This document shows, piece after piece, positions 1,061 to 8,219 of a stretch of 10,288 bases of DNA. Positions within the stretch are counted from its first letter, which is position 1; every line of letters starts with the position of its first letter. The position numbers and the translations under genes were made by a program. This DNA is from Candidatus Vampirococcus lugosii (GTDB lineage: Bacteria; Patescibacteriota; Gracilibacteria; Absconditabacterales; Absconditicoccaceae). A model generated the notes under the pieces. It was not told the DNA's origin, did no database searches, and was given only the letters and a program-made list of their open reading frames with translations. The stretch spans positions 1-10,288 of the forward strand of contig NZ_JAEDAM010000062.1 in the NCBI RefSeq assembly GCF_018420025.1, read 5' to 3'.

Positions 1061-2389
1061 TTAATTAATTAAAATTTTCTGTTCATTTCATGTTTTCATA
1101 TTTTTAATAATATAATAATTATTACTTTTTTCATTTTGTCAAAATATAACAACATTTTTACTTAATCTTTTATTTGCAAAATCTAATTGTTTTTTAAACT
1201 TATCTTCAAAAGGATAAATTTCTACACTTTTTCATTTTTTTAAAAATGATAACATTATAGACAATATTTCTTTGTTGGTCTCATCAAAATTTAAAAAAAA
1301 ATAATCAGGTCAAGTTTGAAAATCTTTTTGAGAAAAAGTAATTTTTTTATCCAAAAAAATAGAATAAAGCCTATCAATACCAATACTTCCACCAACTCAA
1401 GAACAATTTATTTTGGAAGATAATGAATTTGTAAGTTTATCATACCTTCATCATGAACAAATACTTCAAAACTCTGGAAACTCATCTATAAATATTTCAA
1501 AAACAGTTCCTGTATAATAATCCAAACCTCTTATTATAGAAAAATCAATTTTATATTTTATATTAATACCTAAACTTGAAGAAATTGATAATAAAATTTC
1601 TAATAAAGAAATTAAATCGTTTACTCATTTTTTATAATTATCATCATCAATTAAATTTAAGATATCTGGAAGATCTTCAAAAAAAATTTCTTTTGATAAT
1701 ATTGAAACAAGAAAATCAATATCCTCATCAGATACAGAATTTTTTGATAATTCTTCAATAAAATTAGATTTAGATAATTTATGAAATTTATCAACGATTC
1801 ATACAAGTTTTTTTTCTATAATTTCACTTGAAGATATTTTTTTTAAAATACTTTCTATTATTAATTTATTATTAATATTTACTGTAAAATCTATTTTTTT
1901 ATCACAAACACCAACAATATCAAATATTGTCATATACAAAATGGCAATAATTTCTGCATCATAATAGAATAGATTATCAAACTTTTTTTGATTTCGTATA
2001 ACATCAATATCAGCTTGAGTAAATTCTTTAAACCTTCATTTTTGCTGTCTTTCTCATCTTCGCACTTTTCATATTTGATATTTTTTGAAAGGGAAAAGTA
2101 AATTTGAAAAATTATCTACAACAAATCTAGCAAAAGGAATTGTTTGATCAAAACGAAGAGAATATTTTTTTATATCATCTACTCACTGAGCCAATCAATA
2201 AAGTCCAAAAATTTGTTTACTTATATCTTCTCATCATTTTGAAAGTAAAACTTCATTTTTTTCTACTACTGGAGTTTCAATATGATTATAATTAAATTTT
2301 TTAAAATTAAGTTCAATTAAATCCAAAAAAGCATCATAAACAACTTGATTTTCAATACTATATTCATTAAATCATCATACTTTAAACAT
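1061..2389 (-). CDS. hisS: Histidine--tRNA ligase (HisRS), 442 aa, code 25
   Basis: Line-by-line translation is continuous once TGA is read as Gly. Class II HisRS motifs are present: GKVRRGERQQKGRFKEFTQADID (motif 2), IIRGLDYYTGTVFE, SICSGGRYDKL (the GG is TGA TGA) and GVGGSIGIDR (motif 3), followed by a C-terminal anticodon-binding-like domain. It ends in TAA at 1063-1061. Confidence 0.93.
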
Positions 2390-2991: not shown

Positions 2992-3522
2992 TTAAAAAAT
3001 ATTTATGATATTAATTAAAAAAGTAATGTATACTTGATTAGAAATTATATGATATATTAATGCGGAAAATTTGGTTTTGTCTATTGTAATATGAACATAA
3101 AGTTCTCTACTAAAATCATCAATTCATACAAATAAATATTCTTTAATTTTTTCTTTATCGTCTTTTATGTAAGGTAGTTTTTTTGTATCCATATGAAACA
3201 TTTCTCATGGATATGTTTTATTGTATCTTCTTGCTTGTGCATTTTTCTTCTTTAATGTTTTCTTTTCAATTTTTGATAATCTTTTAAATCAGTATGCTAA
3301 TCATCTAAATCTTGTGTTTGTTGAATTACGTATCTGAAATTCTTTTACTCTAGCTCTCTTTATCACTTTATACACTGTTGGTCTGCTTATATTATATTTA
3401 TTTGCCAAATCCACAACAGACCATTGATCACAATATAGTTTTCGAATATGTTTACGATTCTTTTCTGTTAGTCTCTGATTTTTATGTTCTTTTTTTTGAG
3501 TACATGTTATATGTATATTCAT
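2992..3522 (-). mobile_element. Truncated IS481-family-like transposase (HTH plus the N-terminal part of the rve/DDE integrase core), 176 aa; likely an IS remnant
   Basis: The track ORF 3301-3522 carries an HTH (SVVDLANKYNISRPTVYKVIKRA). Under table 25 it continues through 4 TGA as ...RFRGLAYGFKRL...ARRYNKTYPGEMFHMDTKKLPYI...EYLFVGIDDFSRELYV..DKT. This matches the IS481 pattern RYE..PGEL.H.D.K.L and YL.VAIDD.SR. The frame ends soon after the first catalytic D, so the TDNG.EF second-D and E regions are absent. No terminal inverted repeats were found. Confidence 0.6.
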
Positions 3523-3875
3523 ATTTTGTTTTTTACATAAATATAAATTTTATCTATTATATCTTTTTGTATAAATAACGCTAGTCTATATTACATATAA
3601 TGTATGATATGATGAAAATAAATTTAAAAATTTTTTAAAAAATAATATATATTATGAGAATTTTCAATTATAACTAAACAATTAAAACTAAAAAAATCTC
3701 TTAAATCTTGATTAGTTTGATATGTTTAGTATTATAATAATATTGATGATTTAGAAATTAGGAATGCACTTTATTTAACTTTAAATTCTATGAAGTTTTT
3801 GGGTATATGAAGTTGTGTAAAACTTGGTTTATGAAATGTATCAGTTTTTATTAATTAAATTTTGTATATAAAAAA

Positions 3876-3908
3876 ATAGAGTAGTTAAATATAACTCTAT
3901 TTTTTTTA
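3876..3908. terminator. Bidirectional rho-independent terminator downstream of the R-M operon
   Basis: 7-bp stem ATAGAGT (3876-3882) / ACTCTAT (3894-3900) with an 11-nt loop. It is flanked by an A-run upstream and T8 (3901-3908) downstream, so a T-tract follows the hairpin on both strands. It lies about 65 nt after the R gene stop. Confidence 0.6.
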
Positions 3909-3971: not shown

Positions 3972-4892
3972 TTATTTTGTTAAAAACTCTAAAACTCCTT
4001 TCTCAAGCATTGCTAAATTAAAAATATAATCATTATGATCAAAATTTTCTCTTAAAGGTTTTTGTGTTTTTTGCCAACCAAAACCGTCTGTTATCCAGAA
4101 AAATTTATATTGTCCGTTCAAAACATCAAATAAATTTCTATATTCTCCTGCTGTAGATTTTAGTTTTGAACCACCTCCACCATAAAAATTTGTCTCAATA
4201 ATAAAAAGTTCTTTTCCGTTATCTATAACAAAATCATATCTTCTTGAAGATTTATCAACTGGTACATCATAACCTAATTCTTTTTTGATTTTTTCAGAAT
4301 TAGCTTCTTTTAGATACTTGTAATTACATTTTTCGCAAACATCTTTGATAAAAACTTCTACAATATTTTCCATTGCATGTCCACCACGATTTTTTCTTGC
4401 ATTACTGTCTAAGCCAGCTTCAACTCCTATCATATAATCAACTAAATTTTTCAACCTTTTATTTACAATCAAAGATTTTAATCCTGTTTCTTTTACAAAA
4501 TGTAAATATTTTTCAATATCTTCATCCTTAATTTCTTTTTTAGAAAAATCAAAATTTTCATAAACAAGTTTTTTATTTTGATAATCAACTAAAATTTTGA
4601 AATTCTTTTTATTGCTTCCGTCTCTAACAACCAAAGCAGGAAGTACTTTTGCAATACTTGGATTTTCTTTTATCAAAAATCTAAATTCATCATCAAAATT
4701 TTCTTTTCCGATCAAATAGTTTAGAGCATTTAAAGCAAGTTCAATCTGTTTTGTGTTTTTTAAAACTTTTTCCCAATTAACAAAATATGACCAAATAGTA
4801 TTGCTTGGTTTTAAATTAGAAATCAAAAAATCAAAAACTTGTTCTTCTGACTCTAAATTTAATACTGATTTATAAAATGTAATGTTTTTCAT
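3972..4892 (-). CDS. dpnB: Type II restriction endonuclease, DpnII/MboI family (predicted GATC specificity), 306 aa
   Basis: Intact ORF in the standard-code track. Segments match R.DpnII as I recall it: NLVDYMIGVEAGLDSNARKNRGGHAMENIV, RYDFVIDNGKELFIIETNFYGGGGSKLKSTA and FWITDGFGWQK..L.E.FD. The ATG lies 3 nt after the methyltransferase stop. It contains no TGA codon, and all 18 Gly are GGN. Confidence 0.9.
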   Translation of the reverse strand: MKNITFYKSVLNLESEEQVFDFLISNLKPSNTIWSYFVNWEKVLKNTKQIELALNALNYLIGKENFDDEFRFLIKENPSIAKVLPALVVRDGSNKKNFKILVDYQNKKLVYENFDFSKKEIKDEDIEKYLHFVKETGLKSLIVNKRLKNLVDYMIGVEAGLDSNARKNRGGHAMENIVEVFIKDVCEKCNYKYLKEANSEKIKKELGYDVPVDKSSRRYDFVIDNGKELFIIETNFYGGGGSKLKSTAGEYRNLFDVLNGQYKFFWITDGFGWQKTQKPLRENFDHNDYIFNLAMLEKGVLEFLTK

Positions 4893-4895
4893 AGT

Positions 4896-5756
4896 TTATT
4901 TTTTAGAATTAAATTTATTTTTTAAGTTTTTGTCCAATTCTTCAAATCTTTTAATAGACAAATCAAGATATTCTTTTTCAAGATCTATCCCAATAAACTT
5001 TCTACCAAACAAATAAGAGGCAAGACCTGTTGTAGAACTTCCCGTGAATGGATCTAGAATTGTATCTCCTTTATTTGTACTAGCTAAAACGATTCTTTTT
5101 AATAATTCTATTGATTTTTGAGTAGGATGTTTTCCAAAAGTTTTTTCAATTTTACTTGGAGTTAAAATAGACCACACACTTCTCATTTGTTTTCCTTTCT
5201 CGTGCATAACTTCATATCTATCTTTTTTTCCACAATGATTACATTTAATTTCTTTAGTATAATTATTTTCCCAATTTACCATAGTTTTATAATTGAAAGT
5301 ATGTTTTGCTTTTTTATCTTTTCATGCCCAAATCAAAGTCTCATGACTGGCAGTAAAAAAACGACAACTCAAATTTGGTGAAGCATTTGGCTTTAGCCAT
5401 GCAATATCATTTAAAATATGAAATTTATTTACTTGCAAGGCAAATCCACATTGATAAATAGAATGATATGTCCCTGAAATCCAAATTGTTCCATTTGGTT
5501 TTAAAACTCTTTTACAAGCCTCAATCCATGTAAGATGAAATTCAAAATTTTGTTTTGTCCCATTACACATATCCCAATCTCCTTTTTTTACACTTACCAT
5601 TTTCCCATTTTGACAAGTAAAACTTCCACTTGAAAGAAAATAAGGAGGATCGGCAAAAATCATATCTACAGAATTTTCTGGCATACTATTTAAAATATCC
5701 AAACTATTAGCTTGATAAAGTGTAAATTTTGGTTTTTCGTAATATGGTTTTTGCAT
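4896..5756 (-). CDS. dpnA: Beta-class N6-adenine DNA methyltransferase, DpnA (M.DpnIIB)-like, 286 aa; single CDS containing one in-frame TGA (5322-5324)
   Basis: Track ORFs 5322-5756 and 4896-5282 are in the same frame, joined by TGA plus 13 codons (..SHETLIWA-TGA-KDKKAKHTFNYKT-MVNWENN..). The N-terminal half carries catalytic motif IV DMIFADPPYF. The C-terminal half carries SAM-binding motif I ILDPFTGSSTTG and GKHPTQKS. The order and sequence resemble DpnA. It ends in TAA. Confidence 0.88.
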
Positions 5757-5865
5757 ATTATTTAGTATAAGTTTTAAAATAATATATTTCTATTTTATAA
5801 AATTTTGTAACTTTTCATTTAGTTATAAAAAATATTTATTATAAAAATATATTAAAAGTTTAATT

Positions 5866-7389
5866 TTAATCATCTACTATTATTTTTATTCTAGAAGATA
5901 TAGATGGCAAATTTTCATACCATGGAGGAGTAATTCTAATGATTCATACATCTATTTCATCATATCAAATTATAATATTTTTTGCTTGTGAAGCTGTTTT
6001 ACCTAATATTAAAGACGATATTTCATCTTTTAATGCTGACATATCTCTTTTGAAATCATATCATAGTACTACATCTATACTAGTAGGAATTATATAATAT
6101 CAATCTGATTTATTATTTTCATAAAAAATAATACTATCTTTATTAATATCTATCAAATTATAATTTTTAGATTTTCTAGTTTTCATAAATTTTTTTACTG
6201 CATTTAACATATCATTCCATTTTATGTAAGCTACATTAATTTTGAAATTAACTTTTCAATCAATACTATAAACTTTATCACCAACTTCCTGTTTTATTTG
6301 TTTATCTAATATTTCTACATCAATAAAATCTTGAAAATGTAATAAAATTTCATTTTCTTTATCTATCAAAGAACTTGCAAAAGAATTTATATTACTTTTT
6401 ATATGATCTTCCAAATAAGTATTTATAGTATCCAAATCTGCTTGTGTAACTTCTCATTCTTTTTCAGTTTTTCATCATACAAATTTTTCATTGGGATATG
6501 CATATATATTTTTTGCTATATTAGATTCGGGCAAATTTTTGATATATAATGTATCAGATTGAGATATATTTCATCTTGCTCAAATTACTTCCCCAAATTC
6601 ATCTTTACTATCTGCTACAACTTCTACAACAACATTTCAAGGTCAATCATCATTAGCAGGAGGAATGTTTACCCATGATTTAGTTCTAAAAATTAGTCAA
6701 GAATCAGTTATTAATCTAGTATTTGAAACTAAAGAGTAATCAAATTTAGTATCATTATATATAGTAATAGTTCAACTTGATGGTTCTTGACTATATTTAA
6801 TATTTTCTACATCAATAGAAATTGAATAATCCAATATTTTAGATTTTATATTATATGGAATAATAATTTGAGACATATTTGTAAAAGTATCATAATCTTC
6901 TTGAGGAACATATCTGAAGTTGTAAGTAATATTTTGTGGTTCATAAGATGATTTTATATATATACTAGCAGATGGAGTAACATATAGATAAAAATAATAA
7001 AAAATAACTAAAATAAAAAAAGTTTCCAAAAAAATAATAAAATATCAAAATGTAGATTTTTGTTTAAATATAAATTTTTGAAGTTCTGATGAATATAGAA
7101 AAAAATCTTTAATTTTTTTAAAAAATTTTAAAAATGGATTTAACTCTATTTCTTCATAATTTGCTCATATAGATTTATAATATTGTGATAAAGTTTTTGA
7201 TTTACACAAAAAAACATAATCAATACTTTTTGTATCTAATATATCCAATATTTGTTTTCATAACCATTTATTCTCAAATATAATATTTTTAGGATCAATT
7301 ACTATTTCTACACTTTTATTATTTGGAATTTTTTCCAAAGTTTTAAAAATTTTGTACAAACTATCTTTGGAAGAAAAAATAATTTTCAT
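5866..7389 (-). CDS. Membrane-anchored conserved hypothetical protein, 507 aa; resembles the CPR proteins often auto-annotated as baseplate J/gp47-like (tentative)
   Basis: Frame from ATG 7389-7387 to TAA 5868-5866 verified line by line under table 25, with 21 TGA. It contains track ORF 6772-7029. An N-terminal region of about 95 aa is followed by one strongly hydrophobic helix (YFIIFLETFFILVIFYYFYLYV) and then a large domain with SGTITIYNDT...NTRLITDSGLIFRT...VVVEVVADSKDEFGE...KFVGG and a C-terminal ITPPWYENLPS..IKIIV. The family call rests on memory only. Confidence 0.75.
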
Positions 7390-7448
7390 ATTTCAATAAT
7401 ATATTTATAATTAAATATTAAACTTTAAAATAATATTATAATTATTTT

Positions 7449-8219
7449 TTATCTTAATCTAAAATAAAGATATACAAAATATAAAGATATAAAAATAGTT
7501 CGATAATTTTTAATATCAAATGTGTATCAAAACATTTCCGTAACTAAAATTTTATCATATAATTGAAAATAAAAAACTAAATTAATCATAATAGATAAAA
7601 ATATAAATCAAAAAATTCATATTCAATATCTTCTAAATATGTAATTCAAGATTAATCATATAATAAAAATACTAATTCAAAGTAAAGATAAAAATAATCA
7701 TACAGGATATACCATATCATAATTATATAAAACACTATCTTGCAAAAAAGTAGATACACCAAATACACTAGATGTTGGTCTTCATATAAAATTATCTCAT
7801 AAAAGCAAAAATATTCAAAAAGGAACTAAAGATAAAGATATACTATAAAAAAATACATCTATCCATTTGAGTTTCTCTATTCTTAGATCTATTTTTTTCA
7901 AAAACATACTCAAAGCAATAATTAATCATAATGTAATTCAAATAAAATTAAATTCATAGCCATATGGAGAAAGAATAATAAATAAATCATTCAAACTTAA
8001 AGGAATTACTAAATTATATTTAAATAAATTATAAAAATATCATCACAAAATATAAGGCAATATTAAAAAGATAGGTAGCCAATTAAAAAATTTCCAAAAA
8101 TTAATATTAAATCTTTTTGAATAAAAATTAATTAAAAAAATTACACTAATAATAAAAATTACTACTCATATTCATGTCATATATATATTATTTCATGCTA
8201 TATTAATATAAGGATACAT
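7449..8219 (-). CDS. Polytopic membrane protein, Lgt-like (prolipoprotein diacylglyceryl transferase family, divergent), 256 aa
   Basis: Frame from ATG 8219-8217 to TAA 7451-7449 is continuous under table 25. The hydrophobic segment pattern and local similarity to Lgt blocks are judged by eye: NIYMTGIGVVIF vs hWYGl..lg, LVPFGIFLLLGDNFIGR vs ..lGqaiGRwGNF.N.E, and YPVGLFLSL vs P.qLYEs. Several canonical catalytic residues do not appear conserved, so the function is tentative. Confidence 0.55.

Follow-up and report, generated by a model that had tools for sequence, protein, structure and literature searches.

Downstream of a 507-aa host protein, the genome of Candidatus Vampirococcus lugosii carries the gene of a DNA methyltransferase (M), which is interrupted under the standard genetic code by one in-frame TGA and is followed by the gene of a restriction endonuclease (R) that would then be made in full. 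The locus raises the question of how this TGA is read, where it came from, and whether it makes the restriction-modification system "code-locked", as the original prediction had called it. The analysis covers the 10,288 nt of contig NZ_JAEDAM010000062.1 (the window), and all coordinates are window positions.

Structure of the restriction-modification cassette

With TGA as a sense codon, the frame of M comprises 286 codons and a TAA stop, and codon 145 is its only in-frame TGA; the minus strand reads ...gag act ttg att tgg gca TGA aaa gat aaa aaa gca aaa cat.... Table 11 splits the frame into an ORF of 144 aa (5322..5756) and an ORF of 128 aa (4896..5282) that starts with the ATG at 5282. Because DPPY occupies codons 36-39 and DPFTGSSTTG codons 235-244, codon 145 falls between the catalytic and the SAM-binding motif (Table 1). 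Sequence and ORF calls agree here with the original prediction, which had placed a lone TGA between the DPPY and FxGxG halves of a methyltransferase of 286 aa under code 25 and 144 aa under code 11, next to an endonuclease gene without TGA; R is complete and has no in-frame TGA. In the homolog alignment, D235, P236, F237, G239, S240, S241, T242, T243, and G244 of the motif I block are invariant, as are H152, F154, and Y156 in the block that directly follows the TGA, where conservation reaches at least 90% at K146, K148, K151, T153, and N155.

Table 1. Features of the cassette and its surroundings in the window
Feature	Position	Strand	Basis or remarks
M gene, beta-class N6-adenine DNA methyltransferase, DpnA / M.LlaDCHI-B-like	4896..5756	minus	286 aa (code 25), TAA stop
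DPPY catalytic motif (motif IV), M codons 36-39	5640..5651	minus	translation; D36, P37, P38, and Y39 invariant in homolog alignment
M codon 145, TGA, Gly in V. lugosii	5322..5324	minus	sequence
M codons 146-158 (KDKKAKHTFNYKT), from the TGA to the internal ATG at 5282	5283..5321	minus	conserved block
SAM-binding motif I block DPFTGSSTTG, M codons 235-244	5025..5054	minus	translation
R gene, DpnII-family type II restriction endonuclease, 306 aa	3972..4892	minus	no TGA, TAA stop
Imported cassette	3972..5763	minus	DNA similarity to nearest standard-code relative
AT-rich inverted repeat (atagagt ... actctat), A-run before, T-run after	3870..3907	minus	read from sequence
Truncated IS481-family transposase (HTH and part of catalytic core), downstream of cassette	2992..3522	minus	Pfam HTH, NCBIfam

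Both proteins are intact members of their families. M matches the Pfam family N6_N4_Mtase (PF01555; E = 3.5e-56, 191 bits at a cut-off of 26.7) over profile positions 1-220 of 221 (M residues 30-268) and has the circularly permuted order of the beta class, with DPPY in the N-terminal and the FxGxG-type motif I in the C-terminal part. R matches the Pfam family DpnII (PF04556; E = 1.5e-91, 307 bits) over profile positions 2-277 of 278 and carries a rare residue at none of 86 conserved columns. The two genes share a strand, with M immediately before R, which starts 1 nt past the stop codon of M. Both are exact matches to GenBank entries: R to MBS8122265.1, and M to MBS8122266.1, which is already entered as a methyltransferase of 286 aa.

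Judging by family membership only, M and R would both act on GATC. The window has 15 GATC sites, five of which are inside the cassette; the 10 sites outside compare with whole-window expectations of ~20 (Markov model) and ~17 (base composition), counts that carry no information on specificity. A second methylase of the DpnM/Dam type (alpha class) is absent from the window and also from the nearest relative of the cassette (L001). The cassette is therefore a two-gene relative, not a classical three-gene system.

The gene upstream of M has no Pfam hit and contains 17 TGA codons. The transposase fragment downstream matches the NCBIfam model transpos_IS481 (5.3e-18) only at profile positions 103-174 of 284. 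The inverted repeat downstream of R lies in host-type sequence and is a possible terminator, although the G-C pairs in its stem are too few to be caught by a consensus terminator scan. Promoter and terminator scans gave no more hits than in shuffled sequence.

UGA is a glycine codon in V. lugosii

The proteins of the window are exact matches to GenBank entries of V. lugosii, and the genome paper of this organism reports the reassignment of UGA to glycine and gene calling with table 25 (PMC8080830). Under table 11, ORFs of 100 aa or more add up to 0.21 of the window length, versus 1.05 when TGA is a sense codon. In the seven host genes of the window, 91 in-frame TGA codons stand against 27 GGN codons, so that TGA makes up 77% of the glycine codons (91/118) and ~4% of all codons. 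The flanking host genes include HisRS, RNase Y, a membrane protein, and the IS481-like fragment. HisRS was aligned to two solved HisRS structures (6nhi and 3net) after its TGA positions had been masked; the masked columns proved to be mostly Gly and never Trp, and they include glycines of GGRYD and other class-II motifs. This rules out code 4, in which UGA encodes tryptophan.

UGA thus encodes glycine in V. lugosii, and the TGA in M is a sense codon, as already reflected in public annotation. Because V. lugosii decodes UGA as glycine, codon 145 is an ordinary glycine codon, and under table 25 M is neither a pseudogene nor a split gene. The original prediction had deduced the glycine reading from the intact state of R, next to which a truncated methylase would be lethal. 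Its conclusion stands and the argument is valid, but the code can be read straight from the flanking host genes, which makes the argument unnecessary.

A tRNA scan of the window found no tRNA gene, and Hanke et al. (2014) mention neither RF2 nor a UCA anticodon. The Logan translations put tryptophan at UGA (P0126), which is an artefact of gene calling.

Recent import of the cassette

The surroundings of M and R are host DNA, whereas the cassette itself is a recent import from bacteria that use the standard code. In a blastn comparison, window positions 5763-3972 align with positions 9994-11785 of L001 at 94.75% identity over 1792 nt without gaps, and the similarity stops 7 nt before the ATG of M and at the stop codon of R. 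L001 uses the standard code, as seen in its HSP70 gene (48 GGN codons and no TGA). The nearest relative of M (P0001 on L001/L002) is encoded on a contig of 42% GC, where the cassette also stands out with 26.7% GC; in the window, the GC content is 26.6% in the cassette versus ~15-22% in the flanks. Only one of the 34 glycine codons of the cassette is TGA, compared with 91 of 118 in the host genes (Fisher p = 8.6e-16). By contrast, all four glycine codons of the IS481 fragment are TGA, which places this host-adapted fragment outside the import.

Both junctions of the cassette with host DNA rich in TGA glycine codons recur in independent Logan contigs. The cassette is therefore truly part of the Vampirococcus genome, and contamination or a chimeric contig is ruled out. 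Restriction endonucleases and DNA methylases are among the entries in the list of horizontally transferred genes given in the genome paper (PMC8080830).

Homologs of M with 75-94% protein identity are present in many lineages, mostly Patescibacteria. None of the related loci examined represents a second code-25 genome with the cassette; even a locus labelled Gracilibacteria (L007) has standard-code flanks. Relative to the nearest relative, M shows 28 synonymous and 16 non-synonymous differences and R 32 and 6, ratios that are consistent with purifying selection on both genes. Of the substitutions in M attributable to the lineage of the window, 10 are AT>GC and two are GC>AT, and there is no drift toward the composition of the host. 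The locus cleanly illustrates how genes passed very recently from standard-code bacteria to a recoded CPR bacterium, with boundaries that are exact at the level of ORFs.

Origin of the TGA codon

Among 120 aligned homologs, the column of codon 145 holds Arg in 115, Lys in four, and Gly in one. At the DNA level, L001, the nearest relative, reads AGA; across the 81 related loci scored, the codon is AGA in 57, AGG in seven, CGN in 14, and GGG, AAA, ATT, or ATA in one each, and in none of them TGA. Comparison with these loci traces the TGA to an ancestral AGA, changed by an A-to-T substitution at 5324 that amounts to the missense mutation R145G. The original prediction had given arginine as the residue of the family and had proposed a single-base origin; both points are supported, and M.LlaDCHI-B also has Arg at this position.

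The prediction went further and took the TGA for a first step of codon amelioration, and here the evidence points elsewhere. The cassette contains 19 GGA codons from which TGA could be reached silently, and not one has been converted. The ancestral AGA and its arginine, the unchanged GGA codons, and the lack of an AT-ward drift together rule out silent GGA-to-TGA amelioration. The one TGA in M is a single mutation and statistically unremarkable; what is remarkable is the scarcity of TGA in the cassette. R145G would have arisen after the import, because in a standard-code cell the same substitution would create a stop codon in M beside an active R, with lethal outcome. Under code 25, however, AGA-to-TGA is a missense and not a nonsense mutation.

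Probable tolerance of glycine at position 145

The sequence of M finds its best solved relative in CcrM (6pbd, 3.4e-52). The fold was compared with an AlphaFold2 model not of M but of its 94%-identical homolog P0001 (pTM 0.71, mean pLDDT 68). The best match of this model is again CcrM 6pbd (E = 1.9e-22), followed by M.BceJIV, M.MboIIA, M1.HpyAVI, and M.RsrI; the model of P0001 thus has the methyltransferase fold of solved beta-class members. In this model, R145 is the last residue of a strand formed by residues 139-145. The equivalent residues of CcrM, S149 and K150, receive no discussion in the paper on the CcrM-DNA structure.

M departs from the homologs at four columns that are at least 90% conserved (R145G, L63M, L184M, and A196S), and R145G is the only radical change among them. 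If it disabled or weakened the enzyme, the cassette might be decaying, another GATC methylase might protect the genome, or R might be unexpressed or only weakly active. Such an impairment would fit the near-universal Arg or Lys at column 145 (119 of 120 close homologs), and the genome might hold a redundant methylase, since the V. lugosii paper counts eight DNA methylases and a single type II endonuclease (PMC8080830). The pairing of M and R is also often broken in nature: a DpnII-family R adjoins the M homolog in only 15 of ~85 related loci.

However, glycine occurs naturally at this column. P0066, a close homolog on a standard-code contig, has a genuine GGG there, and more distant active enzymes have Ser (CcrM and M.MboIIA) or Val (M1.HpyAVI) at the aligned position. 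R is full length, keeps all 86 conserved columns, and shows the 32:6 ratio of synonymous to non-synonymous differences. The GATC sites of the window, including those in the cassette itself, would be targets if they were unmethylated. Impairment of M is therefore unlikely; these observations suggest that glycine is tolerated and that Gly145 M is probably active.

Authenticity of the TGA

It is also conceivable that amplification or sequencing introduced the T at 5324, in which case the true codon would be AGA and the cassette entirely free of TGA. The sequenced DNA consisted of MDA and MALBAC amplification products of a few cells (PMC8080830), and an error free of selection could strike a highly conserved residue, as this substitution does. 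Moreover, outside this site, ~0.2-0.5% of the positions in the Logan assemblies of both runs disagree with the window, and one HisRS variant has ~8 residue differences; these differences represent heterogeneity or amplification noise.

The same TGA is nevertheless present at codon 145 of Logan contig SRR13241709_107 (L088), an independent assembly that is 100% identical to window positions 7552..5216 (2,337 nt). This rules out an error of the original assembler and leaves whole-genome amplification as a potential source of error. The check involves one run (SRR13241709), because the contig from the other (SRR13241708; L089) ends at 5448, before the site. Elsewhere the window is identical to neither run, which suggests that more than one source of data lies behind it, and any single specified base has a small prior chance of being wrong. 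An error early in the amplification is unlikely, and an artefactual T of any kind is very improbable.

History of the cassette and consequences of the TGA

The evidence makes the following history likely as a whole. A two-gene cassette of the DpnII/LlaDCHI type circulates among standard-code bacteria, mostly Patescibacteria, and entered V. lugosii recently, free of TGA and with TAA stops, so that it could be expressed at once on arrival. An A-to-T substitution, which would postdate the import, turned AGA (Arg145) into TGA and replaced arginine by glycine at the end of the H-E-T strand. Gly145 M is most likely still active and would keep R in check. As a by-product, the cassette would fail under the standard code, with M cut at residue 144 and R intact.

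The designation "code-locked" is therefore correct as the logical consequence of one reversible point mutation, and nothing suggests selection for it. The same lock arises for any gene that gains a sense TGA in a genome using code 25, and a single mutation of this kind suffices to abolish the dual-code compatibility of an imported toxin-antidote pair. That the locus represents the first click of a one-way "code ratchet", in which import and a tolerated AGA-to-TGA change trap the cassette in a recoded lineage, is a speculative and highly improbable extension of this history. Should it hold true that imported toxin-antidote modules in code-25 genomes gain sense TGAs first in the antidote, this would amount to real containment or weaponisation rather than an accident.

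A selected lock, kept because it is suicidal for standard-code recipients and serving to confine the cassette or to weaponise exported DNA, is extremely unlikely. Table 11 does yield a truncated M next to an intact R, and genetic isolation through recoding has been discussed for these bacteria (PMC8080830). However, the presumed lock consists of a single reversible mutation at the expense of a conserved arginine, whereas selection would more plausibly have used one or several of the 19 silent paths from GGA to TGA, none of which was taken. Among the related loci examined, there are neither other code-25 flanks nor any TGA at column 145, and a benefit to host or cassette is not evident.

Split methyltransferases do occur in other families (M.AquI and M.EcoHK31I), and both table-11 ORFs of M are present, but the probability that residues 1-144 and a product from the ATG at 5282 form separate subunits is negligible: no Shine-Dalgarno-like sequence precedes this ATG, 13 codons including the invariant H152, F154, and Y156 would be lost, all close homologs are single chains, and termination at codon 145 is not expected because UGA is the main glycine codon of the host. 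The absence of a Shine-Dalgarno sequence, the lost invariant residues, and the use of UGA for glycine rule out the split-gene reading.

The locus has little importance beyond its correct annotation, and the useful points are evolutionary. The idea that TGA-free mobile DNA is usable under both codes has already been published (PMC10746230); new here is that the cassette arrived very recently and that its sole TGA stems from an arginine codon.

Comparison with known systems

Among the closest characterized counterparts is LlaDCHI, encoded on plasmid pSRQ700 of Lactococcus lactis. R is 39.5% identical to R.LlaDCHI over 96% of its length, and M shares 49% identity with M.LlaDCHI-B, the second methylase of that system, which is of the DpnA type and belongs to the beta class, with DPPY before FxGxG. 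LlaDCHI and the DpnII system of Streptococcus pneumoniae, however, comprise three genes, the first of which encodes a DpnM/Dam-type methylase, whereas the V. lugosii cassette has two. M also differs from M.LlaDCHI-B by an insert of 23 residues with a CxxC motif and, at codon 145, by TGA (Gly) in place of Arg.

M has its fold and motif order in common with the beta-class N6-adenine methyltransferases CcrM, 1g60, 5hek, and 1eg2, and the ...HETLIWA-x-K... block aligns with these enzymes without gaps. Unlike M, CcrM possesses a C-terminal DNA-binding domain and is an orphan regulator, whereas M is paired with an endonuclease.

In code 25 of Absconditabacteria (SR1) and Gracilibacteria, the TGA of M is decoded in the same way as the 91 neighboring TGA glycine codons. 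The mechanism is identical, but this TGA lies in a fresh import and replaces an arginine instead of a GGN glycine codon. The relatives of the cassette resemble the "code-11-compatible" phages of code-25 hosts (Liu et al., mBio 2023, PMC10746230), which have no in-frame TGA, use stop codons other than TGA, and can be expressed under both codes; M and R likewise both end with TAA. Unlike these phages, the locus in V. lugosii is a chromosomal restriction-modification cassette, whose dual compatibility has just been lost by one substitution.

Genomic context of the methylase family

The methylase (M) of the imported restriction–modification cassette belongs to a family whose conservation is unusually high: protein identity is 75–94% among members that span many phyla and come mainly from Patescibacteria (loci L001–L086). 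The GC content of these loci is often below that of their surroundings. A DpnII-family endonuclease adjoins the methylase in only 15 of about 85 loci; the others have different neighbors, such as a PDDEXK_11 protein in L006. The family resembles a promiscuous methylase module whose partners can be exchanged. One locus labeled “Candidatus Gracilibacteria bacterium” (L007; JALVIB010000044.1) has flanks in the standard code, including an EF-Tu gene with 37 GGN codons and no TGA, and may be mis-binned or mis-labeled. Its DpnII-family gene encodes 241 amino acids and is apparently truncated.

Assembly discontinuities within and downstream of the cassette

The Logan assemblies of both V. lugosii sequencing runs are interrupted inside the methylase gene (window 5163–5216). 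Two contigs (L004 and L005) begin at exactly position 5163, and a third (L088, from SRR13241709) departs from the window at position 5215 and ends in 23 unrelated bases. These breaks could reflect a hotspot of amplification chimeras or branching of the assembly graph. The version of the gene in the window is supported by its colinearity with the nearest relative (L001), a standard-code locus that aligns to the cassette without gaps.

A second discrepancy lies downstream of the endonuclease gene. The independent Logan contig L004 (SRR13241709_1426) tracks the window from position 5163 to 3595 and then diverges. Where the window has an IS481-like fragment and the gene for HisRS, L004 carries csm3- and cas6-like genes of a type III CRISPR system (contig positions 1571–2910), with 19 and 10 TGA-Gly codons, respectively. 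Either the junction marked by the insertion sequence is polymorphic or rearranged, or one assembly of the two is chimeric. A CRISPR-Cas locus may adjoin the cassette. The truncated IS481-family transposase gene ends in an AT-rich tail. Every one of its four Gly codons is TGA; it is therefore a host-adapted remnant and did not carry in the cassette.

Host genes and GATC frequency

The Logan-derived HisRS (P0126), encoded on a 2.3-kb contig, differs from that of the window (1061–2389) in about eight residues and also at the TGA positions, which are Trp instead of Gly. These differences indicate strain heterogeneity or amplification errors among sequencing runs. The 507-residue host protein encoded upstream of the methylase has no Pfam match in this analysis; its UniRef name is “Baseplate protein J-like domain-containing protein”.

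Outside the cassette, GATC occurs 10 times; a second-order Markov model gives an expectation of about 20, and base composition one of about 17 over the window as a whole. The count of GTAC is low to a similar degree, and a single 10-kb window is too small a sample to call GATC avoidance.

Features of the window
Feature	Position	Strand	Remarks
IS481-family transposase, truncated	2992–3522	−	HTH domain; profile positions 103–174 of 284 only
Insert in M, 23 residues (NYTKEIKCNHCGKKDRYEVMHEK)	5184–5252		M residues 169–191; relative to M.LlaDCHI-B
507-aa host gene	5866–7389	−	17 TGA-Gly codons; N-terminal transmembrane-like segment

An insert in the methylase

Within the insert of the methylase, C172 and H185 do not vary, and C175 hardly does. 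The insert may form a small metal-binding or DNA-contact element; the confidence of the AF2 model is low across this region. The insert is found in the methylase and its close homologs but is absent from M.LlaDCHI-B, the second methylase of the pSRQ700 system.
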